From the NCBI GenBank assembly GCA_043228905.1, contig JBHGNT010000002.1, positions 16,678,001 to 16,742,000 of the forward strand: a stretch of 64,000 nt of DNA, given 5' to 3'. The notes below the pieces were generated by a model. It was not told the DNA's origin. It made no database searches and saw nothing but the letters and a program-made list of their open reading frames with translations. The position numbers and the translations under genes were made by a program. This DNA comes from Azolla caroliniana (Eukaryota > Plantae > Polypodiophyta). Below are positions 17,774 to 64,000 of this stretch, one piece after another (positions within the stretch are counted from its first letter, which is position 1; the number at the start of each line of letters is the position of its first letter).

Positions 17774-19749
17774 ATGAGGGGGTCAGATCTTGCTGAGGCC
17801 ATGGCTTCGGCCGTGGACCGGATAGTGAGCGCGTGCGAGGGCACCGGCGCCCTTGACAGGGCTATTGAGGCGATCGTCGGTATGATCGGCCGGTTCAGTA
17901 GAAAGGATGCCACGAGTTATTTGGCGTCCTACCGGGCGGAGATGTTGATGAGGGATATTCCGGAAGAGAGGCGGCTTGCCGGATTCCCTCGAGTGACGAT
18001 GCCGGGCATCCATGCGGAGGTGCTCGAGGTTCGGGCGGAGAGTCGGACCTGGGAGGAGTTCGAAGGACGGCTTCTGGAGAAATACGGGCTGGATGACGCG
18101 CTTCGACTTTCAAAGCGGAGCTTCATGGAGTTGGTGGAGTCCCCCAACAAAGGAAGAAATGCGTCGGTACTCCTCCGGGAGTTTGAGGAACGCTTTGCGC
18201 GCCTTTCGGCGCTCGATCGAACCGTTCTGGACACAAGTCGTGTCCTACTGTTTGTCAAATCGGTTGATGCACGAGATCGGGGGCAAGTTGGCTCCTTACT
18301 GGAGACCGAAGACAGGTTGACGGCTGACTGGGCCGCGGTAAAAAGAGTCTGCAGCCGTTTTGACCAGCGGTGGGAGTGGGCTGATACAGAGGCGACCGGG
18401 GCGGGACCTGTCGCAGCAAGGAAGCTCGAACCGATACCACAAGCGCGAAGGGAAGAGACCCGGGAGTGGCTCGAGACCGGTTCGGCTTCAATCGGCGTGA
18501 TCAGAGGCTCGTCCGGGGGAACAGCTCTAGAGGAGTTGACGCGAGCCAGGTAGTGTACCTGTGGGAAGGTCAGGTGCACGCCAGCGATACCCGGAGGGCC
18601 CTGAACCGAAACGATGGGCGAGGAGGAATGAAAAGGCTAATGGAAGAGGCGGCAGCCCGGCACGCGGAGACCGTCCACTACTCGGCGTCAGCCGGTATTC
18701 GGGTCGGAGGCAGCGAGGCCCGGAAGGAGAGCAAAGCCGAGTTCTGGCCGACGGTGCTGGAAGGCCTCGCCGGTGCCCGACTAAAGAGAGACGAGGCGGA
18801 CCGCGCGGAGAAGCAGGTCCAAGAGGTAACCGGGTGGAGTGATCCGGTCGAAGAAAAGACGGGTTTCGTCGAAGCAACTTGCCAGAACTACGAGGCTCTG
18901 GTTAAAGACAAACGGGTAGGTAAAACCGGAGGGGCCGGACCCTCACAGAGATACGAAACCCGATTTGGGCCGAAACGGAACAAGGCCGGTGAGTCTAGTG
19001 CCCGGGATAACCACAAGAAGGGCGGGTACCGTTTGAGCACAGAGATCGAAAGGACCGCGCACCTACGAAAGGTCCTGGAAGAACGAATCCTCGACAGCAA
19101 AGTGGAACTGTCGTTGCGAGAGGTGCTCGGAATCGCCAAGAAGGAGTTCCACGACTCCATCGTGGACTTGGTGAAGAGGAAGAGGCTGTCGACGGAGGCA
19201 GAACCGGAAAGGCTGGTGGAGGTGCGGACGGCGCACATAGAGGACATGGTGCTGGAAGACGAGTGGGCGGAGAGCCACTATTTGAGGCCACACTGGGCCC
19301 GAGCGACCACGGAAACCCCGGTGAAGATCGGAGATGTTCAGGAACCGGTGGTGGCGCTGGTGGACTACGGTTCGGAAATAAACCTGATGTCCATGGACTT
19401 CTACAAGAAGGGGAAATGGCCGATCAACACTAAGCACGGGTGGAAGATACGGGCGGCGATGCGCGCCACCGAGGAACTACATGGGGCCTGCCCAAACGTG
19501 CGAGTCAAGATCGGCGACGTCGAGATAGACCAGCACTTCTTTGTGCAGGAGACGTCCTCGCACCCGGTCAAACTGGGAGAACCATACATTACGGCAGCAC
19601 GAATGGAGGCCAAGGTGCTGGATAACGGGTCGGCTTACACGAGGGTCAAGAGTCAGGACAGGCGACATTCAGTCCAGTTCCTGACGGTGCGACCGAACCA
19701 CGAGCGAAACCGCGAGTCCCTCGGTGGCGAGAACCGAGAGGATTTTTAG
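17774..19749 (+). pseudogene. Gag-protease ORF of element A; zinc knuckle lost by a deletion near 18550
   Basis: ORFs 17747-18553 and 18466-19749 are collinear with element E. Protease motif ALVDYGSEINLM; ends EDF-stop. Confidence 0.85.
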
Positions 19750-19806
19750 AGAGGGCTGCCAAGGCGTGGGACCGCGACAGTCCGGACAGTCCGGGAAAAC
19801 CCCACA
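19740..19806 (+). promoter_or_regulatory. Putative -1 ribosomal frameshift signal (element A)
   Basis: G GAT TTT TAG, 6-nt spacer, stem GGGCTG/CAGTCC, and loop GTGGG able to pair with downstream CCCAC. Confidence 0.7.
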
Positions 19807-34842: not shown

Positions 34843-34846
34843 CATT

Positions 34847-34863
34847 TGGTGAACCTGACGTGA
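34847..34863 (+). promoter_or_regulatory. Primer-binding site, tRNA-Trp (one mismatch)
   Basis: TGGTGAACCTGACGTGA. Confidence 0.8.
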
Positions 34864-34881
34864 AGGCAGCGTCAAGGAAAA

Positions 34882-36995
34882 ATGGAGGAGCAAATGAGGC
34901 TTATGTGTACGATGATGGAACGAATGATGCGAGAGCAAGGGATGATGGTAAGCATCGACAAAGCCGTCGACAATATTCTTGCACGAGTGGGAATCTTCGA
35001 AGGTATAAATTTAACAAGATATTTGAAGATTTACAATGAAGAAATGCTTAAACGTGGTGTCGACGAAGCTGCCAAAATTAATAGCTTTAGTCGAGTCGCT
35101 GCGATTGGGCTACAACAGAGGATCCAGGAGCTACAGAGGGAGCATCAGACATGGGCAACTTTCGAAAGAGCATTACTGAATGAATACAACCTGAACGATA
35201 TGTCAAGGATGACAAGGCGATCTTTCATGGATTGGGTAGAGTCTAATAAACATTTAAGTGTTTTGGAAGGGTTAAAAGAGTTTTCAGAAAGATTTGAGCA
35301 ATTAAATGTTAGGGATAGAAATATAATAATGCCAGATAAAGTAATATTGTTTCTACAAGCTACTAATATTAAAGACACGAAAGACTTGGGAATGCTTCTG
35401 GAAGATCAGAATAGTCCTACTGGACTTACCGAAGATTGGGAGGAGGTAAAAAGGGCTTGCACCCATTTTTGTAAAAGAAAGTTATGGTTTATGGAGCTGC
35501 CAGAGAGAAATGAAGAAGAAACGGGGAACAAGTCGGGAGAAAAGAAAGTGGAAGAGTCACTCTTGCATGAATTAGTGAAAGGCATGAAAGACTTGTCGAT
35601 CAAAGTGACGAAGCTAGAATCGGGACAAAGCTCGACTTCATCAAGGCAGGGAGGTGGAATGGTGCGAAGGTGTATGTGGTGTGATAGTATCGACCACCAG
35701 AAGAAAGATTGTCAAGAGCATAGGGATGCTCTTAATCATAATAAAATCCACTATCAAGAGGGCAAGATTCACTCGACAGAGACTCGACAACCACTTCAAC
35801 TCAACTTCGGACGAGGAGGAATGAAAAAGCTAATGGAAGATGTCGAGAGAGAAACGACTCAAGTGATACAATCCGTGGCAACCTTAGGGTTGCGCGTAGA
35901 AGACTCATATGGTGGATCTGGCTTTTGGCAAGATGTGATGGATTATGCAAGAAAAGGGAAGGTTCGAGTGGATGAATTAAAAAGAGTGGGAGATGAAATA
36001 CGAAACTTCACTGGATGGAATGATCCAGTAGACGCGCTATCAACATTCGCCCAAGTGAATGCACAAGATGTGCTAGTGGAAGAGAAGTTGAAGAGAGAGA
36101 GGAAGCTGATCCGACAAAGAGACATGAGACACAAGAACAGAAGAGAAGGGAGATGGAAAAGGGTGCTACTGAACCGAAGGAAGCTGATAAAGTAAAAGGA
36201 AAGACAGGCCCATCTTTCAAGCTTGCCTCAGACATAGAAACAACAACGGATATAAAAAAGGTACTAGAAACAAGAATACTAAATAGTAAGGTAGAATTTA
36301 CTTTAAGAGAAGTGTTGGGTATAGCAAAGAAAGAATTTCATGAAGTTATCATAGATATTATTAGAAGGAAGAGACAGGTGACAGAGGAAATTACGGGAGG
36401 GTGTGCAACAACACTCCAAAATTTGTATGGTGGCACCATCAATGCTGCAAGTGTAAAAAACCAGAATGATGTTGGCGTCCATGAAGGGGATAGGAGTCAC
36501 TATACAAGGGACCATTGGGCTCGAGCAACAATGGAGGCACCTGCAAAAATTGGGGAGCAGCAAATTCCATGTATTGCTTTGATCGATCATGGATCCGAGA
36601 TTAACATGATGTCATCAGAATTTTACGCTTGAGGACGGTGGCCGATCAACAAGAATCATGGGTGGAAAATAAGAGCTGCCACAGAGACTACGGAGGATCT
36701 ATTTGGAGCATGTCCTAGTGTGAAGGTAACAATTGGTGATGTGTTGGTGAATCAAAATTTCTTTGTGCAGGATCGATCAACCTACCCCATCATCCTTGGT
36801 CAACCCTACATCATTGCAGTGAGGATGGAAACAAAGGTTATTGATGATGGTTCGGCTTTCGCGAGAATCAAGAGTCAAGATGGAAGAAAGACTATCCAAT
36901 TCTTAACCGTGAGGCCCAACCATGAAAGAAACAAAGAATGCTTGAAGGAACATCCAATTCAAGAGATGGATGAAGAGTTTTCCTAGGATTTTTAG
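34882..36995 (+). pseudogene. Gag-protease ORF of element C
   Basis: Zinc knuckle CMWCDSIDHQKKDC; protease ALIDHGSEINMM...PIILGQPYI. Frameshift near 36100; stops at 36632 and 36986. Confidence 0.88.
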
Positions 36996-37048
36996 ATAGG
37001 TCTTTTACAGGTAGGGGTTGTGATAGCCCGAACATAAAAGAAAACCCC
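36986..37048 (+). promoter_or_regulatory. Putative -1 frameshift signal (element C)
   Basis: G GAT TTT TAG; stem 36999-37008/37020-37029 (8 of 10 pairs); loop GGGGTT pairs with AACCCC at 37043. The -1 frame is open into the ORF at 37199. Confidence 0.7.
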
Positions 37049-40000
37049 ATAAATAATCATGTAAATAAAGATATTCCTTGTACAATCTCATCTAATGGTG
37101 CTACTTTTATACTAAAAGTAAATAATAATAAAATACAAAATGCTTTCGAGTACTTTAAGTGTTCTGGATTAATAGAGGATGACGAAGAAATTCAAGATAT
37201 GTTTGAAGAATTAAGTTTTGAAGATACAATAACTCATTTGGAAGCAATGGAAGAAGACAACGAAATCCAAGTTCCTATCCATTCAATCAAGATGTACGAG
37301 GTCATTGAAGAAGCTGCTCGAAAGGATCATGAAGCACATGTACTAACAAAATACAAGACAGTGGAGAAAGTGGAGAAGAAGGTTCGTCCTATTGCTGCTC
37401 CACTTCCAGGGGATAGTGAAAAGGAAATCAAAGAAGCAGCCACAGAGACAATGATCAGAGACCCACGAAAGGTAGGACATGTGTTTACTCCGGAAACAAT
37501 ACAAGGGATGAAAATAGGAGGGGGTGACTTCCTATTGCCCGCTGAAGAAAAGCAGTTCAGGGAGATGTTAAAAAGGCATGGAAAGGCGTTCGCATTCCAA
37601 CCGGAGGAAATAGGGTGTGTGGATCCAGAAATTGTGGAGCCCATGGTTATATTCACTATCCCTCATATTCCATGGAACTTTAAGCCAATACCCATGCCTA
37701 TGGCTAGAATCCCTCAACTATTAGAACTTTTGAAAGAAAAGATAAGGATGGGTATCTTGGAACCATCGAACGCTCCTTACTCGAGTTGATGGTTCACTGT
37801 GTTAAAGAAAGATGGGCGACTCCGATTTATCCAAGATATGCAACCCGTGAATAAGGTAACAATCCGAAACTCGAGAGTAGGGCCAATTATGGATGAGTTT
37901 GCTGAGATGTTTGCAGGAAGAGCTATATATTCAATGGGAGACCTTTATTCCGGGTATGATCAATTTCAACTTGCTATCAAAAGTCGAGATATAACTTCTA
38001 TCAAGACACCTATAGGGTTAGTACGGATGTGCTCCTTGCCGCAAGGAGCAACCAACTCAGTGGCGCATATGATGAATGGAATGAACAAGGTACTTCGTGA
38101 TTTTATTCCTCATATCACAATGCCTTTTCTAGATGATGTTCCAATTAAGGGATGCAAGGAGGAAGAGAAGAACGAGGAATTGGACGAAAGTGGTTGCCGT
38201 CAATTTGTTGTTGATCATATCAAGGATTGTGAGAAGGTGCTATCAAGGATGGAAGAAGTGCATTTGACCTTATTAGGGGTGAAGCCAATATTTGGGGCAA
38301 AAGAGATATTAATAGTTGGTCATATCTGTGGCCCATACGGGAGAAAGCCATCCCCAACCAAGGTCAATGCAATTCAAAATATGCAAGAGGAATGTACATC
38401 CGTCTCAAAAGTACGAAGGTTTCTGGGGGTATGTGTTTTTTACTCTAAATGGATTCCGCATTATGCCCATTTATCTGAACCTTTATATAGACTCCTAAGA
38501 AAAGGAGAGATATTTTAATGGAGTGAAGAGCATTCACAGGCAATGAAGAAATTGAAGTACTACTTAGCACAAGCTCCACCATTAAAGCAACCTGCCTACA
38601 CCCGACCCATATATCTCACAGTAGACTCTAGTCCCATTGGAATTGGATGGGTGATAAGCCAACAAGATGGGGAAGAAAGGTATCCAGTCCGATTCGGAGC
38701 AAAGGTTCTTAGTGGTCGACAAAGAAAATATGCACAGGTGAAAAGAGAGCTATGGGGGATAGTAACAGCAGTAAAGACAGACAGAGATTACTTAATTGGT
38801 GTTGAAGTAATAATAGAAACAGATTGTTTGCCTATTCTTGGTATCATAGCTAATTGTGATATTCCAGATCAAGCCATGTTAAGATGGTGTATCTATATTA
38901 GATCAGTCAACCGTGAAGTTCGACATATCTCTGGGAATAGAAATGCAGTAGCAGATATGTTATCAAGAGCGAGGTATGAGGAAGAGGAGATTCCAGACTC
39001 GGACGATGAGGACAAAGAACAAACAGTCCTTACCACAAGCATTACTCGGGAAGGAGGAATGCAGTTTCTAGAAGAGGAGTATGAAGAAGAATTCACGGAA
39101 ATAGGGAAATACCTACAAACCCCTGACAAGTACAAAGGTCGATCTGGAAAAGAGTTCGCACAGTTTTGCAAGAAAGCCCATAAGTTCTTCCTGCATGAAG
39201 GATATCTATGGCGACATCCGAAAACCAAGACTGGAAACCCGCAAAGAGTAATAGGTTCTGAAGGGCAAAGAAAGGAGATAATCAGAGAGCTGCATGACAA
39301 AGAATGGGCTAGTCATCGAGGAGTGTGGGCCACTTTCAGTAAGATTAAAGAACGATTTTGGTGGCCTCGATACTATGAGCAAATAAAAAAGTATGTGGAA
39401 ACTTGTCCCACTTGTCAATATTATTCAAACGTAAAATTTTGTGATGAATTACACCCAACATACTCACCGAGGGTGCATTACAAGTGGATGATAGATTTGG
39501 TAACAATGCCACTTGGAGTAGGACAAAAGAGATACTTGGTTCTTGCTAGAGAAGATCTAACAAATCAAGTGGAAGGTCGTTCATTGCGAACAAAAGGGAC
39601 ATTAGGAGTATGTCAATTCATCTTGGAGGACATTGTTTGTAGATATGGATGTATCGGGAAGATAGTGGTAGATAGGGGAGAACTCAATTTTGCGGAAGCT
39701 CAAAATTTTTTCGACAAAATAGGAATTCAACTTTCTTTGACAACGGCGTACAATCCAGAAGCTAATGGAAAGGTAGAAAGGGGACATGGGCCAATAGTCA
39801 AAGCTTTGGCAAAGGCATGTAGAGGACAAGTTAGTGATTGGCCAAAAACCTTACCCTATGCACTATGGGCTGATAGGACAACTCATAGCACTGTTACTGG
39901 ATATATGCCTACAGAATTAATCACAGGACAGAAGCCAATAATGCCAATTGAAGAAAAGATAACTACATGGGTTGTGTTGCCTTGGGAATCAGAAATGAGT

Positions 40001-44555: not shown

Positions 44556-47500
44556 GTCACACTCCGTGATCCTCGGGAAACCCTTTATCACGGCTTCACA
44601 GATGGAGACAAAGGTGCTCGATAGCGTAGTGGCTTTTGCATGAATTGGAGCCAAAGTGGGGGGAAAACCGTCCAATTCCTAACCGTGCCATCAAATCACG
44701 AAAGGAACAAGAGAGAGCACGTGTCCCAAACAAAAATGGATTTTTAAAGCGGACTATTGCGGAGTGGGGATGTAATAGTCTGAGAAGCCCTGATACTCCA
44801 CACAAGAAGAAAACCCTCGGAGCAAAACAAGTATAAATCGGTAGGGATGGGGCATCTATGTACACGGCCATAACCGGAGTAATGAAGGAAGAATTTTGAA
44901 AGGTGCAAGATGAGTTATGGTCTGCATCAATAATAAAAGAAGACGAAGAAATCGTGGGAGCAGTTGAAGAAGTGTTCTATGGGAGCATGCTACAATGGCT
45001 TGAAGAGCTTGGAGAAGAGAAAAGCCAGGGAGACCGGGTAGTTCCAGTGGAATTGGTCGAGATGTACGAGATCATTGTGAAAATAAGGCCGGATGCGCTC
45101 CGCAAAGAAGAAGAAATGATATGTACGAAATATAAGACCGTGGAAAAGAAAGTGAAACCGGTCGCGGGACCGCTACCCGCTGATAGCGAACAAAAGAGGA
45201 AAGAAGTCTCAGGAGATCCGACACTTTGGAAGTCCGTGGATATCGGACATGCCTTCACGGATGAGACCCGGGAAAAACTTCGGATTGGTGGAGGCGGTTT
45301 CCTCTCACAAAATGAAGAAGAACGGTTTCGTGAGATGTTGGAGCAGCATGGAAGAGCATTTGCATTCACATCGAGAGAGATAGGGTGCGTTGATCCGAAG
45401 ATAGTTGAGCCAATGGTGATCTTCACAATTGATCATGTACCGTGGAACCTGAAGCCGATTCCGGTGCCACGGGCGCATATTCCGAAAATCATTGACTTGC
45501 TCAAGGAGAAGGTGGCGATGGGGATTCTAGAGCCATCAAACGCTCCGTACTCAAATCAATGGTTTACGGTTCCGAAGAAGAATGGGTCACTCCGGTTTAT
45601 TCAAGATTTGCAACCGGTGAACAAGGTCACAATCCGGAACTCCAGAGTCGGTCCAATAGTGGACGAATTTGCCAAAACGTTTGCCGGTCACGCGATATAC
45701 TCCATCAAAGACCTATACTCCGGGTATGATCAATTCCAACTAGTCGTGGAGAGTTGAGACATCACTACCATGTGGACACCAATAGGATTAGTCCGGATGT
45801 GCACGCGACCACAAGGCACAACGAACTCCGTCGCACATATGATGAATGCGATGAACAAGGTGCTCCGGGATTGCATTATGGAGATAACAATGTTGTTCCT
45901 AGATGACATTCCGATAAAAGGATGTGCGGTGGAAGAAAAAGATGAGACTATGGATGATCGGAGATGCCGAAAGTTCATAGTCGACCATATTTGCGATTGC
46001 GAGAAAGTGTTACGGAAGTTAGAAGATGTGCACCTAACACTCTCCGGAGAGAAATCGGCATTCAGGCAAGAAGAGATATTGTTAATCGGACATCAATGTG
46101 GGCCCTACGGTCGAAGACCATCACCAATCAAGATTGATGCGATTCAAGCTATGAAAGAAATATGCGAGTCACAATCCGAAGTCCGTAGGTTTCTTGGGGC
46201 ATGTGCATTTTATCACATATGGATTCCGCATTATGCACACATTGCGGACCCACTCTATCACTTGTTGTGGAAGGGAAAAAAGTTTGAATGGAAACCAGAA
46301 CATACCAAATCCGTGAAGAAGCTCAAGAAATCAATGCAGAGGGCAGAAGCACTTAAGAAGTTGAACTATGACCGACCGATTATAGTAACAGTTGATACAA
46401 GTCCAACCGGGATCGGATGGGCCATCAATCGAGCCGATTCGGATGGTTCACGATATCCGATCTGATTCGGAGTAAAGGTTCTCAATGAAAGGCAGCGCGG
46501 ATATGCACAAGTTAAAAGAGAATTATGGGGAGTCGTGTTGGTGATAAAATCAGATCGAGATTACCTAATCGGAGCCGAAGTAGTGATCGAAACGGATTGT
46601 CTTCCGATACCCAGGATGATGCGGTGTTGCACAATACCAGATGTGGCTATGCTAAGATGGATTGCATATGTAAAGTCACTTAATCTGGAGATACGACACA
46701 TCTTCGGAAAAGACAACGCGGTAGTGGATATGCTATCAAGGGCACGGTTCCGAGACGACATAGCTGAATCCGATAATGAAGAAGTTTCTAAAAACTACTT
46801 TACTTCAGAGCACATATGCCGGGTGAACGTAATCCGAGAATTCCGGGAAGAAAAACACGTGGGAGAAAGCTTGCTGATTAGGAAAGTGCTACAAGAAATC
46901 AAGGAATCATTGGACAATAAAGAAAAGAGAGTCGAGATCCGAAGTAAGAAGCGACAAGTCTAGAAGTTTTTCTTGAACAACAGATTAATCTGGATGGAGC
47001 CGAAAAGATCGGATGGCATACCACTACGAGTAGTTGGAACAAAAGAGCAACGAAACCGGATAAAGTCCGAATTTCATGAATCCAATTGGGCTGGACATCA
47101 GGGAACATGGGCAACATTTGCGAAGATCAAACAAAACTATTGGTGGAAGAATATGTACAAAGATGTAGCGGAGTTCACGGAAAGCTGCGAGAAATGTCAA
47201 ATTTACTCCAGAGTTCGACACCGAGATGAATTGCATCCGACATTCGCACCGATAATCAACTTCAAATGGATGGTCGACATTGTGGCCATGCCAACCAGGA
47301 TTGGACAAAAGAAGTACTTGGTGTTAGCCCGGGAAGATCTGACAAACCAAGTAGAAGGACGGGCACTACGAAGGAAAACATGTTCTACAATATGCCAATT
47401 TCTCTTGGAAGAAGTGTTCTGCGGGTATGGGTGTGTAGGACAAGTGATTGCGGATCGGGGAGAACTTGACTCTGATAAAGCTAGGGAATTCTTTGTCAGA

Positions 47501-48050: not shown

Positions 48051-50902
48051 CATGGCACGCCCGTGGGACAGTACCTTCTACGTCGAATCCACCATCCGAC
48101 CCTTGCTATTCTTCGTCCAAAATATCCAGAATGCTTTGTTCAAGAGTCTCCAATGGTTCATCTGGAATTGGTTGTTGTTGTTGTTGTTGTGGTTGCTGCT
48201 CCGTTGATGGCTGTTGCGACTGGTCCGTTGGTGGCTGTTGCGGCTGCTCCTCCGTTTGTTGCTCTGACACCAGTGTTTCCGTCGTTGCTCCCTCCGTCGT
48301 AGTGGTCTCCGGTTAACTGGTTCCGGCCTGGCCCTCATCCGGCGACGGTTCCTCATCACTAAGGTTAACCGTTGCCACTTCCCGTGCTTTTTCTTCCCGA
48401 ACCCGGGACCACTCGTAGCTCTCAAACTGGATTTGAGCGTCCAGTCTATCATCGTCTAGCTGAGCTATGAGTTGCCGGACTTGCACCAGTTGTTCATCTG
48501 CCAGGACTTGGAAGTCTTCGGCCAGCTCGTCCCGTATGGCGGTGAAGTCCTCGAAAGTCAACATGTAACAATCATCTCCTTCCTTCCGCCGGTTTTCCAC
48601 GTCTGCCCGTAGCAATTGGAGTTCCGCCATATTTTGTGCCCACTTTGTCCAACATCTTACGGAGCTTTCTTCAATCAAGTGTTTTGTCTGATTCAGCCAT
48701 GCCCGAAGGATGCACTGAATCCGGCCCGTTCCCATCTGCGATTTGATCTCCGCAACTTGTCGTTCCTCCTTCAATTGCTTGATGATTTTGACGTTGTCGT
48801 CTGCCTGCTCCTTGTAATGCGTCAATTGCCCTTGATATGTGCTTTGTAATTTTTGCAATACTGTTGACGCTCTCTCCCTTTCTTCCTACTACTGCCTCTG
48901 GAGCTCCATCCGGACCCTCTCCGCCTCGTCCAACCGTCTTGTATTTTCCGCTCGTTCGTCGGCGAGTGCCGTCGCGGCCCGATCAACTTCCTGCCGGAGC
49001 TCAGCCATCCGTTCCTTATGCTCTGTTTCTAGCCGTTTGTAGTCCCAGTGCAGGTGCTCAAAATCATCTGTCTTTTTCTTGAGCCGTACGTTGATCTGTC
49101 GACAGGCCCGGTCCTCGCGGTCCTTCTGCTGGCAGAGCTCCTCCTTTAGCCGTTCAATTTCCGTTTCCGTCGTCTTCCGCAGCTTGTCCTTTTCCTGCAG
49201 CACTTTGTCTTTTTCCTCCCTTAGCCGGTCGTAAGCTTGATGGCCTTTCCGGAGGCTCTCCTCTGCCCGGCAGAGGTTCTCAGCAGTCTTCTTGAATTCT
49301 GCTTCGGCCGCTGTCTTCAATTCCCGTTCACGGCTCCTTAGCGCTTCTTGTGCGGCAAGTTCATCTCTCAATTCCGCAAGCTCCTGGGCTTGCGCCGCAT
49401 CTCTCTCTGGAACGGTTTCCGTTGCCGGGGTCTTATTAGTATGTACAGGTTGGTCTATTTCTTTATTCTGTACACTTACCGGAGTCACCGGTGATTGGAT
49501 CTTTGTTGCCGTTAAGGCCATTTTGGCCATTTCTGCCGTGACCTGATCCCAGTCTTTTTCAAGGCACCGGGTTCTGGACCGGGCCGTCTCTAGTTGTTCG
49601 GTTGTGACGAGCAACCATTCGCTTTGCGCTCTTTCTTCCGCCTCAATATACCCCACTGCTCCGGCAATCTGTTCTCCTATCCACCGGAGCCACAGGCTAC
49701 CGGTGCATTGATGTTGCGCTTGCACGGAGGTTTGACGGATGGGCTCGCTTGTGGGTGGGTGGTCCCACCTGATTGCGCTGAGTTGCAATTCCGTTTCTGC
49801 CCGTGGACCACCCTGCTGTCCTGGTTCCCCTTGCGCTTCTTCTTGGTTGGCCGAGGGAGGCTGCATTGACCTTTCTGGCTCTAGCGGAATGGGACTTGCC
49901 GGTGCTGCTGGTGGTGCAGGGGCTTCTGATTCCGGTGCCATGCGCACCGGTTCCGGTTCCTCCCTTGGCGTGGGAGTCTCAGTATGGGGAGCCGGTGTTC
50001 CCTCTGTCTGAGGGTCCGAACGTTTCCCGGCTGCCTCAATGGTCCTTGCCGACGACCGTCGCTGGAGGTGCTCCGTAGGCTCCTCCTCTATTTCCTCTTC
50101 CTGAGTCCCAGCATTGAGTTTCGCCGCCAAGGGGTCCGCTTCTCTATTCACCGGTCGACGGAGTGTAATCTTTACGGGCCGTACCGGTGGTTCCTCCTAC
50201 GCATCCGTTGGCCGCTTCCGGCTGGCGCTCTCCTTTCCCCCCTGTTCTGCGTCCGCCGCCTTCCCCTTAGTGGCCTTAGAGGCCAACAACTGTTGTCTTT
50301 TGGAAGCAGTCTTTGGGGTGCCGTCCGCCACTCTTCCCCGCTTCTTGGGCTCGACGGGCTCGATGGGTGGCACAAGCAAGGTGAGCCACTGCGTTACTGC
50401 ATGCCATATCCTCTGTCCATCTCGGCCTTCTCTGCCGTCTTTTCCTCTGACGATCTCGATCGCCGCACACAAACCGTCTGCAATCAATACCGGCCAATCC
50501 ACCTTGATCCCTTCATAGGTGGCGATGATCATCCTTGCCCGGTTCTGCGGCATTGACAGAGGGTCTAGGGTACACATGGCCGTATTCGTGGAGCACACGG
50601 GCAATCTCGCGGAACAGCATATCTCCGCCGCCCTGTGTCCGGTAGCCCTTGCTGGCTAGGGAGTACTCACCAAAATACTTGATGAGTTGCTCCGAGGTCG
50701 GATTGTCGATCGTGAATATGCCTCCCTCCGGAAGGCCTGTTAACGCACGGATCGCCTCCTCCGTTATGACCTCTGTGTCGATTTCTTTGATCACCTTGTC
50801 GGCTTCTTTGTGTGGCGGTGCCTCCATAATCGTCAAGAAGCCCTCGAGCCCGTGTTGCTTTAGCCATTTCTTGGCGGCTTCTGACAGCGTTTGCGGGTCC
50901 AT
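48051..50902 (-). pseudogene. ORF3 of element F, about 930 codons: globular N-terminus, Pro/Glu linker, long coiled coil, polyQ tail
   Basis: Consecutive same-strand ORFs 50513-50902, 50197-50604, 48889-50151 and 48313-48858 are joined by frameshifts and by TAG TAG (likely from CAG CAG) at about 48886. Confidence 0.7.
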
Positions 50903-51269
50903 GTCTGTGTCGAGGTCGGATTGTGGTGGTGAGGTTGGATGGTGATGAGAGTGAGAGAGAGAGAGAGAGAGTTCAGAAAGCGGGGGTTCTCTGTGCGTAG
51001 GTTCTCGTCTGATGATCTGCCAACGCCTTGGTGCTTATGTGCTCCTGGGTTCGTGAAATGAGAAGGTCTCCATGCGTTGTGGTTTTTCTTTGTGCATTCT
51101 GGCGCCTTTTTCGAGCGTGTGCACGTCGTGTACTAAAATAGCATTATGTCCTGTGGCGGCGCTTAAATGCCCACTACGTACCTTTTCGCTCCTCGCTCTC
51201 TTGTCCGTTCATACCTCGCTTTTGCATTATTACTTCGCTTTTTTTTTTTTTTTTTAATGTAGTGTGAGG

Positions 51270-54225
51270 TTACTTGTCTGTTGGTCCTGTCGGACCCTTA
51301 CCGGCCTCATTACGGTTTGCCGTCGCCTCATTGTCCCCAGTTATCGGCTTGCCGTCTCCTCCGTCTTGGTGGTTGCCGTTTCCCTCACAGGTTGCCGTTT
51401 CCGCACCGGTTCCCAATCCGGTGTCGGTCCTTTGCTCAAATGGGTTCTTGGGCATCGGTCCTCTATATGGCTTCAATCTGAATCCGTTAACCCATTTTCC
51501 TAGCACTTCGCCGGCAAGTGTCCCTAACTGGTAGGACCCATTATACTCACGTGTCAGCCAATACGGGCCGGTCCATCTAAACCGTAGTTTACCCGGCATC
51601 TTGCCCATCCGGATCTGAAATACTAACACCGGCTTGCCGATTTCGAACATTTTTTCATTTCCTTTCCTGTGCCGGTCGACAAATGCTTTCCGTCACTGTT
51701 GTTCCAATTCTAAGTGCAGGATGCTTGCCAGTCGTTGTTCCTCGAGTTCACACAGCGTTGTTAACCGTATTGCCTCCGACCCCTTCTCCTTCAGCCGTTC
51801 CCGTAGCTGGATCCATAAGCTTGGTACTTGGAATTCAACCGGCATGACCGCCTCTAGTCCGAACGCTAACCGGAACGGTGTTGTTCAGATGCTCGTTTTG
51901 TATGTTGTCCGGTATGCCCAAAGCGCGCTATGTAGCTTGGTATCCCAATCCGTTCGGTTTTCGTTAACGATCTTCCGGAGGATATTCTGGAGCGTTTTGT
52001 TCGTCGACTCAGCTAACTCGTTTGCTTGCGGATAGTACGGTGTGCTCCGTTTATGGACAACGGCATAGAATGTCGTCAGGCTTTCAACTACTTGGCCGAG
52101 AAAGTGCCCCCCTTGGTCTCTTATTAATTCGATTGGGCATCCGTAACGGCACCAAATGTATTCGTATAGAAATTTTGTCGTTGACGCAACGGTGTTGTCT
52201 CTTAAGGCTTTGGCCTCCACCCATTTCGTGTAGTAATCCGTCGCGACGATGATGTACCAATTACCTGTTCTCATTGCCGGTGGTTTGAACGGTCCAACAA
52301 AGTCCAGCCCCCACTTCTGGAATGGTTCGAGTGGTAGTACAGGCTGGTGTGGCATCCGAGCTTGCTCCGTTGGCTGGCCCATTCGCTGGCATAGGTCACA
52401 TTCTTTTGCATACCGTACAGCATCTCTTAATGTAGTTGGCCACCATAGGCCACTTTGCCATATTTTCCTGGCCGTCGCATCTCCGGCATAGTGACCTCCG
52501 GCAACTCCGCAGTGGGCTTCCCTCAGTATGAGGTCCTTTTCACTGCTACGAACAGCTCGTCTCCATATGTCGTCCGTGCCCTTGTGGTAAAGTGTGTCTC
52601 GCAGTAAGCAGAAATGTCGTCTTTGCACCGCCAGGCGTTTCCTTTCGTCCCGGTTCATCTCCTCCGGAGGCAGTCTTGTGCTCAGAAACTGGTGCATATT
52701 TGTGAGCCACTTGTCTTCCTGCGCCACCGTTTCTTCTGTTGTTGTTTCCGTAGTGACTCGAAACAGCTCCGCATCCGGAAACTCGTCCGCTACTCCGTCG
52801 CCCGTCTCTCCGGACTCTAGACAACTTAAATAATCCGCTACGGCATGCTGTATACCGGGTCGGTGGAATATTTCGAACTCAAATTCCTGTAACAGTAAGG
52901 TCCACCGGGCCAACTTACCGGTGAGTGATGCCTTGGACACCAGGTAGAGGAGTGCCGAATGATCTACATGGAAGGAAAACTTCCTTCCCAATAAATAATG
53001 CCAAAACTTTGTCACACTGTAGATCATCCCTAGAGCTTCCCGTTCCGTGGTAGAGTAGTTCCATTCCGCTTGGGATAGCTTTCGGTTGGCATAGTACACT
53101 GGCCGGTACCACTTTGGCTCCGTAAGCTGCACCAGTGCACTTCCGATTGCGATGTCAGAGGCGTCCACGAACACATGAAATTCTTTACTCCAATCCGGAG
53201 GCTGCACTACCAGTGCTTGCGACAATAGTACCTTGATGGCCCTATACGCCCTATCCTCGGTGCCGGTCCACTGGAATGGTGTTCGATGTACCGCAGCATG
53301 CAACGGTGTAGCCAGGTCGGCCAAGTATCGGAGCATCCGGCTGTTCCACCGGATCTGGCCTAAGAACCGGCTCAATGCCTTTGCCGTTGCCGGCGCCAGT
53401 GCTTCTAATATGGCTTTCACTTTGTCCGGGTCGACTGCAATGCCTTCCTTGCTCTCAATATGTCCTAGTAGGGTTCCACTGGACACGCCAAATACACACT
53501 TCGCCGGATTCAAGCTTAGCCGGTACGCTCTACACTTTTCTAGACAAAGACGGAGGTGCTGCAAATGATCCTCTTCCCGGCTATAGATGGCAAAATCGTC
53601 AAGGAAAAAGTGCATAAAAGCCGGGATATATTCACCAAGGATTTCCATGATGATTCGTTGGAATTTTGTCGGTGCCGTTTTGAGTCCGAACATCATCACC
53701 ACGGCCACAAACACCCCCCATTCGGTGACGAAAGCCGTTTTCTCTTGGTCGTCGGGGTGCATCCGGATCTTATTATACCCACTGAATCCATCTAGAAAGC
53801 TATAGACCTCATGGCCGGCGACGGCATCCAACACTCCATCTGTGAACGGAAGTGGAAACGCATCCGTTACCGTAGCCGCATTGAGTTTCCGGTAGTCCAC
53901 ACAAACTCGAATTTTTCCGTTCTTCTTCGGTACGACTACGATCAAGCTCAGCCATGTCGCTTTCTTTACCGGACGGATAAAGCCAACTCTTAGCAGTTTG
54001 TCGATTTCCTCCTTGACTTTGGCAGCATAATTGGGATTCATCCGGTACCGTATTTATGCCGCTAGTTTTGCGTCCTTGCTCAAGTGAATCTGATGCTGGT
54101 ATAACTGAGGGTCGAGCCCTCGCATGTCTTCGTATGACCAGGCAAACACGTCACGAAATTCCGTGAGAAGTGTGATCATCGTCGTTTTGTCTTCGGACTT
54201 CATCTCCTTGGCGATGCTTTGCAAT
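51270..54225 (-). pseudogene. Pol (RT-RNase H-integrase) of element F
   Basis: Motifs FLDGFSGYN, MMFGLKTAP, FLDD, FVDASDIAIG, HCGVAGGH..CDLC, WGLDFVGP and RWTGPY. One 718-aa segment is open. Confidence 0.92.
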
Positions 54226-55547
54226 TGGACGGCTCTATTTGTCGGACGGGCGGTGCTTGCCGGTTCAATAGATTATACTCGCACCTATCCGTCGTATGGC
54301 CCTTGGATTGACAGATTACACATTGCGTCCTCATAGTGCATTCTAGTGCCGAGTGTCCGGAATTCAAGCAGGTTGTGCACTGTATTGCTTGCCGAAACCG
54401 GAGGTCTTCATCGGACGGTAACGCCCGTTGGAGTGCTCCCAGTGTGAGCCAGGAGCTTGTCTTTTCCATCTCTCACCCGTTCAATGACCTGGTCGATGGT
54501 ACTTGCGCGGAAGTCAATTACCATGCAAACCGTGCGTAGGGGTTCCCGGAGCGCATTTAGGAATATAGTCCGTAATTCCTCCTCCGGGGGTGCGCGGGCA
54601 AGCTGACTATGCATCCGTTGAAACCAGATGACAAACTGGGGAATGCTCTCCCCTTCCTCCTGTTGGATGGTATGAAACAAGCCCACCATTACTGTCTGGT
54701 CCACCTCCTTGTGGAAAAAATGCAAGAATTTAGCTTTTAAATCTGCGAAGGTGGTGATGGTAGACGGGTCCTGCGTCCGGCGCCATCTTGCTGCCGGTGC
54801 CTCCAATGTGACGCCAAATTCCACTATCTTAGAGCGTTCCTCTTCCTCCGGGGTCAATCGCTGAGACACATGGTTTTCTTCCCATGTCTGTTCAAAGGCG
54901 TGACCATGAGCTTCCGCGTCCGGATCATCTCTATACTTGGAGTACTGGAACGGCATGTCGTCGTCTGGTATCGGTGCGCGGGTTGGTGGTGTTGGTGGTC
55001 ATTCCTGGTTTTTCTCCGGCGTCGGTGGTCGTTCCTTATTTGTCTCCGGCGTCGGTGTTCTTTCCTCTTCTTTTGGTGACGGAGGCCTCTCCTCCTCGAC
55101 TTCCGGTGTCGGAGGTTGCTCTTCCTCTGCTTCTAGTTCCGGAGGTTCCAGCCTTAGCACTTCCGGTTCCGGTATCGGTAAGGTGTCTGATCCTTCGTCC
55201 TCCGGTCCGCCCGGGGTGTCGTTGCTGCTACGGTAGTTCGTGTGCACGTTGTATCCCCCCTCGGAATCTGATTCATACGCTGAAAAGGCTTCTGCTTCAC
55301 CTTCTCCGCTTGCCAACGCATGGAGAAGGGATTCGGTTTCCCGGAGGCTGCTTAGGCTGCTGCCGTCGTCCGGGTGCGATGTTTGCTGTAACCGAAGGGA
55401 CTCCTCCGCTACTCTCCAGATTACGTTGGAAAACGAGCGATCCGCTCTAATTTCCTACGCCGCTTGCTGGAAAGCCTCACGTCTCCTTTGCCTTTCGGCA
55501 AGGCATCGAGTTCGATCTATAACCAGGTTGTGCGTTGATCTAGTCAT
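54226..55547 (-). pseudogene. Gag of element F
   Basis: RPPTPE repeats, capsid-like region, and two knuckles CTTCLNSGHSALEC and CVICQSKGHTTDRC. Confidence 0.8.
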
Positions 55548-55582
55548 CCATTCATGCCGTCGTTCGCTGCAAAAACAGGAAT

Positions 55583-55593
55583 CGTGGTCGCCA
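55583..55593 (-). promoter_or_regulatory. Primer-binding site of element F, tRNA-Arg-like
   Basis: TGGCGACCACG a few bases from the LTR end; tRNA assignment from memory. Confidence 0.55.
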
Positions 55594-55600
55594 AAAACTG

Positions 55601-56037
55601 TGTTAACTCTTAGGGCCGGACAATGGCCTAACACAGGGTGTCTACGGAAGACACTTCACCAAAGGGGTGTTACGGCAAGAGGATTAGGCTCAACAATTAA
55701 TCCGACTTAATTAGGTCACTTAGCAAGATCGTCCTTAATAATCACACACGCGTAAGATATAACAATGAATGCAGAACGGCAATTAACACAGAGAGATAAA
55801 AATACTAAGCTTCATTAATTATCCACTCCTCATTACATTGTATCTGGGCCTTTAAATAGGTTTCTGGTTTGTAGTACAAAACGGTGCCATCCGCACCTGT
55901 TCGGGATCGGTCCGGATCCGGAACGGCATACCGATTCCGGTCCGTCCGTCCACACTAATAGCTTACTTACAACCATTCCTTAATAATTAAATAACTCCTT
56001 CGTTTTACACTCTGGACTCCTTTGCCGGCCGGTAACA
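55601..56037 (-). repeat. 5' LTR of element F
   Basis: TGTTACC...GTTAACA on the minus strand; repeated at 47777-48050. Confidence 0.9.
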
Positions 56038-58460: not shown

Positions 58461-58477
58461 TGGTGAACCCGACGTGA
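58461..58477 (+). promoter_or_regulatory. Primer-binding site, tRNA-Trp
   Basis: TGGTGAACCCGACGTGA. Confidence 0.85.
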
Positions 58478-58500: not shown

Positions 58501-60627
58501 ATGAGGGGGTCGGATCTTGCAGAGGCCATGGCTTCGGCCGTGGATCGGATTGTAAACGCGCACGAGGGCACCGGTGCCCTCGACAGAGCCATTGAGGCGG
58601 TCGTCGGCACGATCGGCCGGTTCGATGGGAAGGATGCCACGAAGTATTTGGCGTCCTACGGTGCAGAGATGCTGATGCGGGACATTCCGGAAGAAAGGCG
58701 TCTTGCCAGATTTCCCCGAGTGGCGATGCCGAGCATCCATGCGGAGGTGCTCGAGGTGCGGGCGGAGAGCCGTACCTGGGAGGAGTTCGAAGGTCGGCTC
58801 CTAGAGAAATACGGGCTGGACGACGCGCTCCGGCTTTCGAAGTGAAGGTTCATGGAATGGGTGGAGTCCCCGGGGAAGGGAAGAAACGCGTCGGCACTCC
58901 TCCGGGAGTTCGAGGAAAACTTTGCGCGCCTTTCGGCGCTCGACCGAACCATCCTGGACACGAGCCGGGTCTTGCTGTTTGTCAAGTCGGTCGACGAGCG
59001 GGATCGGGAGCAAGTGGGCCTCTTGCTGGAAACCGAAGACGGGCTCACTACCGACTGGGCGGCTGTCAAAAAGGTCTGTGGCCGTTTCGACAAACGGCGA
59101 GAATGGGCAGATAACGGGGCAACCGGGTCGGGCTCGGTCGCAGCAAGGAAGCTCGAACCAGCGCCACAGGTGCGAGAGGAAGAGACCCGAGAGTGGTTGG
59201 AAACCGGTTCGGCTTCGACCGGCGTAGTCAGAGGCTCAACCGGAGGAGCGGCGCTGGAGGAATTGACGAGGGCGATAAAGGACCTCCAAATCGCGCAAGC
59301 CCGAAGGGAAGGTGGCGAACCGGCTCGTGACCGACGGCCGGCGGCAGGAAACAGGTGCATGTGGTGCGATGAAGTCGGCCACATTCGGAAGGACTGCGGC
59401 GACTTCGCGGAGGCGCTGAGGAACAGGGTGGTGTACCTGTGGGAAGGACGGGTGCATGCCAGCGACACCCGAAGGGCCTTGAGCCGAAACGACGGGCGAG
59501 GTGGTATGAAAAGGTTGATGGAAGAGGCGGCGGCCCGACATGCGGAAACCGTCCACTACTCGGCGTCGGGCGGCATTCGAGTTGGGGGCGGCGAGGCCCG
59601 AAGGGAAAGCAAAGCCGGATTCTGGCCGACGATGCTGGAAGGCCTTGCCGGTGCAAGGCTTAAAAGGGAGGAATCGGACCGTGCGGAGAAACGGGTACGG
59701 GAGATGACCGGGTGGAGCGACCCGGTCGAGGAAAAGACGGGCTTCGTGGAAGCCACTTGCCAGAACTACGAGGCTCTGGTAGAAGAGAAGCGGGTGGGGA
59801 AACCCGGGATGACCGGGCCCTCACAACGATACGAGACCCGGTCCGGGCCACGACGGGACGAAGCCGGCGGGGCCGGTACGCAAGATAAACCCCAGAAGGG
59901 CGGGTACCGTCTAGGGACGGAGATAGAAAGGACCACGGACTTAAGAAAGGTCCTGGAGGAACGGATCCTCGACAGCAAGGTGGAGCTGTCGTTACGAGAG
60001 GTGCTGGGAATCGCCAAGAAGGAGTTCCACGACTCCATCGTGGACTTGGTGAAACGGAAGAGGCTGTCAACGGAGACAGAACCGGAAAGACTGGTGGAAG
60101 TGCGGACGACGCACCTAGACGACATGGCGCTGGGAGACGAGTGGGCGGAAAGCCACTATTCGAGACCACACTGGGCCCGAGCGACCACGGAAACCCCGGT
60201 GAAGATCGGCGATGTCCAGGAACCGGTGATAGCTTTGGTGGACCACGGATCGGAGATCAATTTGATGTCCATGGACTTCTATAAGAAGGGTAAATGGCCG
60301 ATCAACACCAAGCACGGGTGGAAAATAAGGGCAGCAACGCGCGCCACCGAGGAACTGCACGGGGCCTGTCCGAATGTGCGAGTCAAGATCGGCGACGTCG
60401 AGATTGACCAGCACTTCTTCGTGCAGGAGACGTCTTCGCATCCGGTCATACTGGGAGAGCCGTACATCACGGCGGCGCGAATGGAGACCAAGGTGCTGGA
60501 CAATGGTTCGGCCTACGCGAGGGTCAAAAGCCAAGACGGGCGCCATTCGGTCCAGTTTCTGACGGTACGGCCGAACCACGAACGTAACCGCGAATCCCTC
60601 GGTTCCGAAAACCGAGAGGATTTTTAG
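58501..60627 (+). pseudogene. Gag-protease ORF of element E; one CGA>TGA stop at 58843
   Basis: Knuckle CMWCDEVGHIRKDC; protease ALVDHGSEINLM...PVILGEPYI; ends EDF-TAG. Confidence 0.9.
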
Positions 60628-60683
60628 AGAGGACTGCCAAGGCGTGGGGCCGCGACAGTCCAGATGCTCCGGGAAAACCCCAC
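60618..60683 (+). promoter_or_regulatory. Putative -1 frameshift signal (element E)
   Basis: GGATTTT at 60618-60624, spacer TAGAGA, stem GGACTG/CAGTCC; GTGGGG (60644) pairs with CCCCAC (60678). The -1 frame is open into the ORF at 60750. Confidence 0.78.
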
Positions 60684-63600
60684 ATCTGTACGATAAAACC
60701 GTGTACGATAGGTAGGAAATTTTGCTTCTCCGACAGCGGAGCATGTACGATGGTCGGCATCGCCGGCCGAGAGAAAACAAAGACGGAGGGGAGACTTCGA
60801 GCGTGTGGAGTTCTCGGCCCTGACGAAGAAATCAACAGAGCCGTGGAGGCAGTCTCCTTCGACGACACCTTGGGAATGCTGGGGAAGGTAGTCGAAGGAG
60901 ACCTTAACGGAGACCGGACGATACCGGTAAGTTCCGAAGAAATGTACGAAGTCATCGCGGACTTCGGTCGAGGGCTCGAGTCGGAACGGACGGCCCGAGT
61001 TAGCACCAAGTACAAGACTGTGGACCGGAAGGTGAGGCCAGTTGCGGCGCCCTTACCGGAGGGCAGCGAATCCCGAATCAAAGGGGTTGCATCGGACCCC
61101 AGCTTACGAGATCCGGCCTGCATAGGACACACCTTCACCAACGAGACGCTCCGCGAGCTGAAGATCGGTGGGGGCGGGTTCCTACTGCCGGCGGAGGAAG
61201 ACCGGTTTCGGAGAATGCTCGGAAGGCACGGGAAAGCCTTCGCATTCTCACCGGAGGAAATCGGGTGCGTAAACCCGACGATCGTAGAGCCGATGGTGAT
61301 ATTCACGGTACCGCATGTACCGTGGAATCTCAAGCCAATTCCGGTTCCGAGAGCTCACATCCCGAAGTTGATGGAACTGTTGAAGCAGAAAGTTGATATG
61401 GGCATTCTCGAGCCGTCGAGCGCCCCGTATTCAAACCGATGGTTTACCGTACCAAAGAAAAACGGATCGTTGCGCTTCATTCAGGACCTGCAGCCGGTCA
61501 ATAGAGTGACCATTCGGAACGCCGGGATCGGACCGACCATAGACGAGTTCGCGGAGGCCTTCGCCGGAAGGTCGATTTACTCGGTCGGTGATCTATACTC
61601 AGGGTACGACCAGTTCCAGCTAGCCGTGGAGAGCAGAGACATTACGACGATGCGAACTCCCCTCGGCCTAGTGCGGATGTGTACGCTGCCGCAAGGAGGG
61701 ACCAACTCGGTGGCCCACATGGTGAATGCAATGAACAAGGTGTTGAGGGACTGCATCCCGGACATCACCATGCCGTTTCTAGACGACATCCCGATCAAGG
61801 GATGCCCGGTAGAAGAGAAGGACGAGACGATCGGGCCGGACGGATGCCGGCGATTCGTGGTGACGCACATCGACGACTGCGAGAAGGTGCTGCAAAGGCT
61901 AGAGGATGCGAGGCTCACCTTCTCGGGGGAGAAGTCAGCCTTCGGGCAGTCGGAAATCATGGTGGTCGGAAATTTATGTGGACCATATGGCCGGAAACCG
62001 TCTCCGGCAAAGGTAGAAGCCATCTCCGCGATGAAGCCTGATTGCAGCTCGGTCACGGAAGTACGAAGATTCTTGGGAGCATGCGCCTTCTACCACATAT
62101 GGATCCCGCATTACGCGCACGTCGCGGAGCCGCTGTACGGATTATTGAAGAAAGGGCGAAGGTTCGAATGGCTAGACAAGCACACGGAGTCGGTCCGGAA
62201 GCTGAAGGAGGCTCTTTCGGCAGCACCGGCGCTCCGAAAGGCCGTCTACAGGAAGGGCACCCCAGTGTACATAACGGTTGACACGAGTCCGACCGGAATC
62301 GGGTGGGTCGTCAACCAAGAAGACGAGGACGGCAATCGGTTTCCGATCCGATTCGGCGCGAAGGTCCTCAGTGAGCGGCAGCGAGGATACGCCCAGGTTA
62401 AACGCGAACTCTGGGGTATCGTTTCGGCGGTGAAGGCCGACAAGGACTATCTGATCGGGGCAGAGGTAATCATAGAGACGGATTGCATGCCGATTCTCGG
62501 CATGGTTTCCGGATGCGCGACGCCGGACCTGGCAATGCTCAGGTGGATAGCGTACATCAAGTCCCTGGACCCGGAAATACGACACATTTCCGGGAAAGAC
62601 AACGCCATGGCCGACATGCTTTCAAGGGCGAGATTCGATGACGAGGGCGGCATGGTTTCGGAGGACGAAGAGGTCGGCGTGGACTTCTTCGAGGCGGCAT
62701 ACGTAACAACCGGCGGGACGAGCACTCCGGCGCTTAACGACTTCGACGCGAGCAAGTACGACGGGGAGTGGCTGCAGATCGGCGGGTTCTTGAGGACAAT
62801 GGCGCCGGATGCGTCATGGACGAAAGACGAGGCCAATCGGATCCGGAAGAAAGCGTACCGGTTCTTTCTCCGGGATGGCTATCTATGGAAGCACCCGAAG
62901 AAGAGGGACGGCGCTCCGCTCCGGGTGGTGGCGATGAAGGAGGAATAGGAGGAGCTGCTGACGGCCTACCACGACAGCCCTTGGGCCGGACACCGTGGAA
63001 CTTGGGCCACGTTCGAGAAGATAAAGGAGAAGTACTGGTGGCCGGGACTGTACCGGGATGTGCATCGATTCGTGACAACTTGCGAGAGCTGTCAGATGCA
63101 CTCCGTGGTCCGACACCGGGACGAGCTTCACCCTACGTACCCTCCGACCATCCACTTCAAATGGATGGTAGATCTGGTGACGATGCCAATGGGGGTAGGA
63201 CAGATGCGGTACCTGGTCCTAGTGCGGGAGGATCTGACGAACCAGGTGGAAGGCCGGGCCCTTCCCAACAAAACGACCGCGGCCGTATGTCGGTTCCTAA
63301 TCGAGGACGTGATATGCCGGTACGGGTGCGTCGGGAAGATCGTGGCTGACGGAGGGGAGTTGGACGCCGAAGAAGCCGCGGAGCTGTTCGACCGGCTGGG
63401 AGTCAAGCTCTCGCTCACCACTGCGTACAATCCGGAGGCGAATGGAAAGGTGGAGCGCGGACACGGACCGATCGTCAAGGCGCTGGTTCGAGCATGCGGG
63501 GGCCAAGTCGGTAACTGGCCGCGGCTGCTACCTTATGCTTTGTGGGCCAAGTCGGTAACCAGGTACATGCCGACGGAGCTCATGTTCGGCCAGAAGCCGA

Positions 63601-64000
63601 TCATGCCGATGGAACGGACGATCTCCTCGTGGGCAACGGTCGACTGGAGGGACGAGATGAGCCGGGAGGAGTTGTTGGCCACGCGTATGCGACAGCTCGA
63701 GCGGAGACCGGAGGACGTGGAACTGGCTGCAGAGAAGCTCCGGGTGACGAGGACAAAGAACAAAGCCAGGTTCGACCGAACGCACCGGCTCCGACCGAAG
63801 AAAATCGAAGAAGGTGACTGGGTGCTCGTCTACGACAGCAGCCTCGACAACCAGCACCGAGCTACACGGAAGTTCGCACGAAGGTGGTTCGGGCCTTACG
63901 TGGTACGGAGCGCCAATGACAACGGGATATATCACCTGGCGGAACTAGACGGCACGAGAATGGCGATACCGGTTGCAGGGAAGCGGATCAAAGCGTTCAA
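60624..64000 (+). pseudogene. Pol (RT-RNase H-integrase) of element E
   Basis: Open from 60624 to TAG at 62948; integrase continues with a short deletion near 63549. Confidence 0.92.

Follow-up and report, generated by a model that had tools for sequence, protein, structure and literature searches.

The Azolla caroliniana locus examined here raises the question of how a retrotransposon that carries Gag and protease in one ORF reaches its reverse transcriptase (RT), RNase H (RH) and integrase (IN), which lie in an overlapping ORF in the -1 frame. In the window, namely the whole stretch of 64,000 nucleotides that was analysed, tblastn with the two ORFs of copy E as queries brought out five mutually related elements, labelled A to E. 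The two ORFs are likely to be joined by programmed ribosomal frameshifting in the -1 direction (-1 PRF) at the heptamer G GAU UUU, and the stimulus for the shift would be an H-type pseudoknot, predicted to lie 6 nt 3' of it. On comparison of many related sequences, a real and conserved -1 signal throughout the lineage is well supported, at a probability of about 0.88. In a sister clade (L044 and L050) the junction is one base shorter, G GUU UUU, and there the same knot may well drive a shift of -2.

Elements of the window

The elements are LTR retrotransposons of the Ty3/Gypsy type, with paired LTRs bounded by TG...CA in A and C, a primer binding site (PBS) and the order GAG-PR-RT-RH-IN (Table 1). 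The PBS of A and C, located 3' of their 5' LTRs, is the same as that of E or nearly so, and the sequence common to the three is what we take to be the complement of the 3' end of tRNA-Trp. Target duplications are 4 bp long, ATGC/ACGC with one mismatch in A and GCGT/GCGT in C. By their 4-bp NCGN duplication and putative tRNA-Trp-type PBS the elements are filed as Phygy-type Ty3/Gypsy. A text search of the literature for the tRNA-Trp identity gave no match, and no match to a chromodomain was found on the complete Pol end of C.

Table 1. Coordinates of the elements, the junction signals and the neighbouring repeats in the window, with the junctions of the two sister-clade sequences
Feature	Position	Strand	Remarks
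Tandem array	3276-4790		52-bp unit, 104-bp higher-order period
Ty1/Copia fragments	15199-15861, 31914-33725		RVT_2; gag_pre-integrase, integrase, SH3
Element B	16414-17069, 23949-24026, 25095-27432		older element
Element A	17073-23947		LTRs 17073-17729 and 23296-23947
Copy A signal (predicted)	19740..19805	+	GGATTTT, then TAG
Element C	33878-41381		30-bp tandem repeats in both LTRs, 34532-34691 and 41085-41244
Copy C in-frame stop	36984-36986		TAG
Copy C signal (predicted)	36986..37051	+	GGATTTT, then TAG
Copy D signal (predicted)	44738..44801	+	partial copy; GGATTTT, then TAA
Ty3/Gypsy element next to D	47777-56037	-	repeats 47777-48050 and 55764-56037; Pol 51885-54053
Copy E primer binding site	58461..58477	+	starts 4 nt past 5' LTR end (58456)
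Copy E ORF1	58501..60627	+	Gag + DUF4100 + protease, ending ...ENREDF*; one premature stop, 58843-58845
Copy E nucleocapsid zinc knuckle	59356..59397	+	CX2CX4HX4C, seen in translation
Copy E retropepsin-fold protease (predicted)	60220..60570	+	end approximate; D-H-G motif at 60241-60249
Copy E slippery heptamer (predicted)	60618..60624	+	G GAT TTT, then TAG
Copy E spacer	60625..60630	+	6 nt; first three nt are the ORF1 stop TAG
Copy E stem 1 (predicted)	60631..60661	+	arms 60631-60636 and 60656-60661
Copy E loop G-tract	60644-60649	+	inside stem 1
Copy E C-tract	60678..60683	+	would form the 3' arm of stem 2 in an H-type pseudoknot
Copy E Pol	60618..62948	+	-1 frame; linker, then RT, then RNase H; one premature stop, 62946-62948
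Copy E linker	60618-61010	+	about 130 aa, heptamer to RT
Copy E RT	~61449-61970	+
Copy E RNase H	~62169-62558	+
Copy E integrase	62949..64000	+	frame same as Pol; cut by window end
L044 junction (predicted)	L044:2497-2560
L050 junction (predicted)	L050:2835-2900

As the original prediction held, GGATTTT followed by a stop codon is present in A, C, D and E, the 6-nt spacer and a stem-1 span of 31 nt recur in 4/4 copies, and the loop G-tract is complementary to the downstream C-tract in 4/4, with 4-6 Watson-Crick pairs. In each of the four, moreover, the homology to Pol is carried on in -1. The stem of ten pairs ascribed to C has to be corrected, as 8 of its 10 positions pair.

All four signal-bearing copies are decayed. 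The Gag and protease ORF was said to end at the heptamer in each; the site is present in four, but in C an in-frame TAG lies directly 5' of GAT, so that its ORF1 as it stands ends upstream of the heptamer, with a second stop inside the protease, and in D most of Gag is gone and ORF1 is frameshifted within the protease. The close relatives of C (L058, L067 and P0035) have a sense codon where C has TAG. The -1 frame was likewise said to be free of stops into RT in C and E; this is true of E, with 776 open codons, but the 267 open codons of C end 4 codons upstream of the start of the Pfam RVT_1 match. Stops interrupt the linker at codon 63 in A and at codon 32 in D.

The surroundings are rich in repeats. 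Element A sits inside the protease of B, where unrelated repetitive sequence has taken the place of the B junction region, C begins about 150 bp past the second Ty1/Copia fragment, and the minus-strand Ty3/Gypsy element lies directly beyond the integrase of D.

The junction across the lineage

The layout was followed in 121 proteins (the query and 120 listed of 251 matches), and in 99 of them, query included, no more than 90 aa separate the protease core from the end of the ORF. The residues DF, GF, NF or VF occupy the site in 93 of these 99: 63 end DF*, 24 end five residues past DF or GF, and GF*, NF* and VFx* account for 2 each; the other 6 have earlier stops. The more distant P0227, P0242, P0222, P0215 and P0186 likewise end DF*, GF* or NF*. 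In contrast to these, the protease continues in frame with no break in the distant relatives P0189, P0183 and P0228; either the split is not universal, or these are mutated copies or gene models, and P0189, a single sequence of 1374 aa, could be either a copy that has mutated or a relative that truly has a single ORF. P0228 reads ..RDFLETAI.., which resembles a fused transframe product. Named species with ORF1 homologues are Physcomitrium patens, Riccia sorocarpa and Adiantum nelumboides, in line with a probable host among the mosses or other seed-free plants. In Riccia, P0096 ends ..RRRDF*, and P0152, P0153 and P0154 end ..RRRRVFPDSLL*, which might represent another G GUU UUY variant of independent origin. 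A scan of viral contigs for relatives found none.

At the DNA level, the best 80 of 169 metagenome loci and 3 genome-collection loci (1 of the 3 usable) were taken, and codons were counted from an anchor on the protein only, by which 70 of the 83 loci could be scored and 13 could not. G stands just before the Asp/Val codon in 69/70 loci, across 11 different amino acids; the codon itself is GAT in 68, GTT in 2 and GAC in 0, and the Phe codon is TTT in 66 and TTC in 4. As background, in the protease 28% of codons end in G, GAT and GAC stand at 141:69, and third-position identity, taken over 125 columns, has its 95th percentile at 0.81. This pattern is the expectation for an X_XXY_YYZ heptamer in which only Z is free. 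The loci are related rather than independent draws, mostly from one metagenome assembly series, and many are near-copies, 29 remaining at under 90% identity. L081, a divergent locus with the full signal, is in a cyanobacterial genome bin that likely contains eukaryotic DNA.

Pol was examined at 79 anchored junctions, of which 61 are open in -1, 3 are in -1 with stops, 2 are open in -2/+1, 2 are off-frame and 11 are without RT, so 61 of 68 scorable junctions are open in -1 from the heptamer, itself in frame with ORF1, to RT. The off-frame L028 and L038 have stops, yet their junction is canonical. A separate search for the RT-start motif scored 51 of the 79, and 49 of these were -1; among these the linker takes 11 lengths, from 121 to 156 codons, with the frame preserved throughout, and neither of the remaining frames is open in any (0/49). 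Both ORFs are fully open in many contigs, among them L007, L018, L021, L029, L046, L062, L070, L071 and L078, where ORF1 exceeds 700 and Pol 1140 codons. The Gag-Pro / Pol reading of the original prediction therefore stands, with protease in ORF1 and Pol in -1 across many families.

Covariation, which had been proposed as a check on the signal, was found in an alignment of 40 junctions, a manual selection out of 55 distinct loci and the 4 window copies. In the 9-bp stem 1, 90.8% of cells are paired and 7/9 pairs show two-sided changes; the covariation is 0.42 versus 0.26 in shuffled alignments (0/500 reached it) and at most 0.18 in slid registers, values to be read with the provision that the shuffle and permutation controls ignore relatedness and that the structure model came from these same sequences. 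The most variable pairs are 20-42 (UA 31, CG 6) and 23-39 (UA 17, CG 12, UG 10), and each of them links the wobble position of one codon with a first position in the Pol frame, a pattern not accounted for by protein constraint. Stem 1 is 8-12 bp long in most relatives, its ninth pair is unpaired in 22/40 rows, and in A and E it has 6 contiguous pairs only and a competing hairpin takes up the G-tract. For stem 2, 29 non-redundant junctions gave a mean of 5.4 Watson-Crick pairs with their own tract, 4.2 with the tracts of other families and 3.5 with shuffled ones, a difference reached in 0/5000 permutations; the own partner surpassed the swapped one in 24/29. Telling pairs are GCGAGA/TCTCGC (L078), GCAGGGA/TCCTTGC (L071) and ATGAGGGT/ACCCTCAT (L050); in a fixed window stem 2 is weak, with 3 Watson-Crick pairs, in L033, L071 and L081. 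The sum of stem-1 and stem-2 scores is at least 13 in 22/29 non-redundant junctions versus 9.6% of 583 control windows drawn from the same elements. Consequently, computation points to a conserved 3' stimulatory structure, and, together with the synonymous positions kept in the heptamer, the stem-1 covariation fits the -1 signal that had been predicted. Rfam gave no significant match to the element, flavi_FSE appearing only at E 4.7.

The last 135 residues of ORF1 have a predicted fold like those of Ddi1 and the retroviral proteases (model pLDDT 64), and Foldseek with this model gave the RVP domain of human DDI1 as the best match (E 6e-5), followed by the XMRV, HIV and EIAV proteases. Pfam gag-asp_proteas matches weakly in 8 of 25 aligned members, and a search of PDB sequences with ORF1 found nothing significant. 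On the modelled retropepsin fold, then, the protease is in ORF1. The usual retropepsin catalytic motif is D-T/S-G, but D-H-G is present in 25/25 aligned members, so the enzyme departs from the canonical motif and its protease activity is putative. Some distant relatives have DSG, DTG, DNG, DGG or DAG. Speculatively, with the protease produced at the level of Gag, lowered activity of the enzyme would be fitting. The linker is conserved at the protein level, with an invariant Gly and acidic helices; it has no Pfam match and no recognisable fold in a poor model (pTM 0.34), and the idea that it is a degenerate additional RNase H (aRH) or a second protease gained no support from fold comparison with this model, where the best Z was 2.9 and Foldseek gave no match at E 0.001.

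The sister clade and the routes into Pol

The original prediction missed a sister clade in which Pol lies in the -2/+1 frame. In L044 and L050, ORF1 ends CAG GTT TTT (T/G)AC TAG, and the same stem stands 5 nt past G GTT TTT. Both ORFs are open in L044 (ORF1 761 and Pol 1106 codons); in L050 the 1181 codons of Pol are open and ORF1 has one stop. The L050 junction has gapless matches in contigs from three other runs (0, 1 and 12 differences), so it is not an assembly slip. In addition, the ending QVFD* is seen in at least six members of the P0031 cluster. A Pol tree, for which 3 too-short and 1 stop-rich of 29 candidate rows were left out, places L044 and L050 as sisters among the -1 families with a support of 99/100; a distant outgroup gave no root, and the clade is called derived because all other branches have -1 junctions, not by a rooted test. 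It rests on two families, and a search with the sister-clade tail found no third of the kind. As the sequences suggest, absence of the A of G GAT TTT T would bring the new heptamer, the 5-nt spacer and the new frame together.

A -1 slip in L044 or L050 would meet a stop within 2-7 codons. The downstream ORF is in the -2/+1 frame and a re-pairing site exists 2 nt upstream, and the reading that this clade gets to Pol by a -2 shift is favoured, though by no means firmly. The P-site tRNA-Val would re-pair poorly on AGG after such a slip. Lin et al. found -2 shifting optimal at spacers 1-2 nt shorter than those for -1 (PMC3458567), and GG_GUU_UUU is described as the -2/-1 site of PRRSV, which is stimulated by protein and works without RNA structure (PMC4937337). 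The main competitor, a +1 shift with the P-site Phe-tRNA moving forward on the U run beside a -1 shift in the main clade, is possible but distinctly less probable. It leads to the same frame as -2, the +1 frame is mostly accessed by +1 shifting according to one review (PMC5009743), and L044 has UUU U before AC, permitting +1 re-pairing; L050, however, has UUU G, which would need Phe on UUG, whereas -2 gives Phe on UUU in both families, and both keep G GUU UUU with a 5-nt spacer to the knot, a geometry favouring -2 (PMC3458567). If -2 is true, nature would here have switched the direction of frameshifting through spacer length and thereby set up a test of the mRNA-tension model; the two clades form a matched natural pair, with the same knot and a 6- versus a 5-nt spacer, for the effect of spacer length on -1 and -2. 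The wider reading, that a whole retrotransposon lineage of seed-free plants meters RT-RH-IN only by a pseudoknot frameshift placed after the protease and that within it a -1 signal became at one stroke a working, pseudoknot-stimulated -2 signal when the A of G GAU UUU U was lost, is put at little better than an even chance.

The main clade itself might join its ORFs otherwise. Splicing of a small intron that removes the ORF1 stop, or a separate RNA for Pol, is very improbable. It has precedent in Ogre, which separates GAG-PROT from RT-RH-INT and splices the gap, and the position of the break is common to plant non-chromoviruses (REXdb, PMC6317226). Nevertheless the ORFs overlap, Pol is open from the heptamer itself, and splicing gives no account of the invariant G-GAT or of a knot at fixed spacing. 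Furthermore, two poly(A) RNA runs, with 315 and 205 reads on E and depths of about 14 and 7 over the junction, listed neither a joint nor an indel there; this weighs only weakly against splicing, since the reads lie on both strands, derive from relatives (90-95% alike for the most part) and represent 12-13% of each run.

It is equally improbable that Pol arises by termination-reinitiation or from an internal AUG, the structure serving that or packaging. A Met in ..EMY.., about 105 codons downstream, is common, but it is missing in L021, L062, L078 and L079, and no Met of the linker is universal; the 100 codons upstream of it are open, conserved in protein and changed by indels in threes only, and the stop varies (TAG, TAA, TGA) or sits five codons further on. 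More improbable still, and largely refuted already, is that stem and motif are a by-product of protein conservation, at a cleavage site or the N-terminus of the linker, and of ancestry, with the frame offset an old inactivating mutation: the region does code in -1, the sequences are related and the controls are without tree correction, but amino acids are poorly conserved here where pairing is kept, synonymous sites of the heptamer are fixed and many contigs have both ORFs fully open. Transcriptional slippage or stop-codon readthrough, suggested by the T5 run and adjoining stop of most copies, is scarcely credible either, as the T run is broken in the TTC variants L061-L064, no indel was listed at the site in the RNA reads (low depth) and frame 0 past the stop is closed in 49/49.

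Under -1 frameshifting, most ribosomes would stop at the heptamer or a few codons beyond and yield Gag-PR. For a minority, a pause at the knot would let the Asp and Phe tRNAs re-pair from GAU UUU to GGA UUU, and these ribosomes would continue (DF-LERT... in E) via the linker of about 130 aa into RT. What the sequences show directly is the layout of the ORFs, their frames, the conserved motif and the covariation; we infer folding in vivo, frameshifting, its efficiency, the ratio of products and, for the sister clade, -2 over +1. The protease would be made at the level of Gag, as the ORF layout predicts a stoichiometric relation between the two, and the frameshift would meter RT-RH-IN only.

Comparison with known systems

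The nearest described elements are Phygy, for which REXdb gives a 4-bp NCGN duplication, tRNA-Trp in 81% and an ORF organisation not determined (PMC6317226). The elements here share with Phygy the 4-bp NCGN duplication, the PBS that is presumably of tRNA-Trp type and ORF1 homologues in P. patens; they differ in that A and C, at 6.9 and 7.5 kb, are under the 7.7-10 kb range described for Phygy, and in that Phygy comes from Physcomitrium patens whereas relatives here are also found in Riccia and Adiantum. The present finding fills the entry left as not determined. A practical consequence is that automated gene prediction merges these ORFs, or cuts them short, when moss, liverwort and fern sequences are annotated.

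Rous sarcoma virus is a retrovirus with env and a different heptamer, and alpharetroviruses keep the protease inside Gag. Its -1 shift with a pseudoknot into Pol, as outlined in PMC5009743, resembles the signal here, and it is at most an analogy to this lineage. The same type of heptamer, G_GAU_UUU, is described for umbraviruses (PEMV-2), dianthoviruses and insect-specific flaviviruses, with plant ribosomes and, in PEMV-2, a nearby stop; RCNMV and PEMV-2 are described as having a stem-loop with long-range pairing, whereas a local knot is predicted here. PMC5009743 lists G_GA sites for umbra- and dianthoviruses and accepts G_GA as X_XX. In PRRSV nsp2TF the heptamer is that of the sister clade and a -1 shift meets an early stop in both; PRRSV needs nsp1beta and PCBP with no RNA structure, whereas the sister clade has AG_GUU_UUU and a pseudoknot predicted 5 nt from it. 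A 2016 review names phage Mu, arteriviruses (with stimulation by protein) and Trichomonas virus 1 as natural cases of -2 shifting.

No description of the signal was found in the literature covered, most subscription journals and Repbase being outside this scope. The word 'frameshift' is absent from the P. patens transposable element paper PMC7466625, and nothing on the junction came from passages of PMC1142308, PMC5014426, PMC5006619, PMC11963269, PMC3542737, 10.1101/2022.06.16.496473 and 10.1101/2022.12.06.519325. From the 2003 survey of Gao et al. that it cites, the same 2016 review reports none among plant LTR elements to have pol in -1.

The original prediction contrasted the protease placement with most Ty3/Gypsy elements, which keep protease in pol. 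The placement itself holds, but the contrast was overstated for plants, as REXdb describes GAG-PROT split from RT-RH-INT in both Ogre and Retand (PMC6317226); since this split is already known, the new part is the frameshift mechanism. Ogre, as described, has a spliced gap, aRH, a tRNA-Arg PBS and a 5-bp duplication, and Retand has mostly a single stop codon and an aRH domain; the present elements have overlapping frames and a 4-bp duplication, and their linker, in its poor model, gave no match to aRH. For Tcn1 and Selgy the GAG/PROT frames overlap according to REXdb (PMC6317226, its table), and the version with overlapping frames at the present position is not in that table, where Ogre stands for splicing and Retand for a stop. 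Plant non-chromoviruses thus suggest one break point, after the protease, that is bridged by three means: splicing in Ogre, a stop codon in Retand and, probably, frameshifting in the lineage described here.
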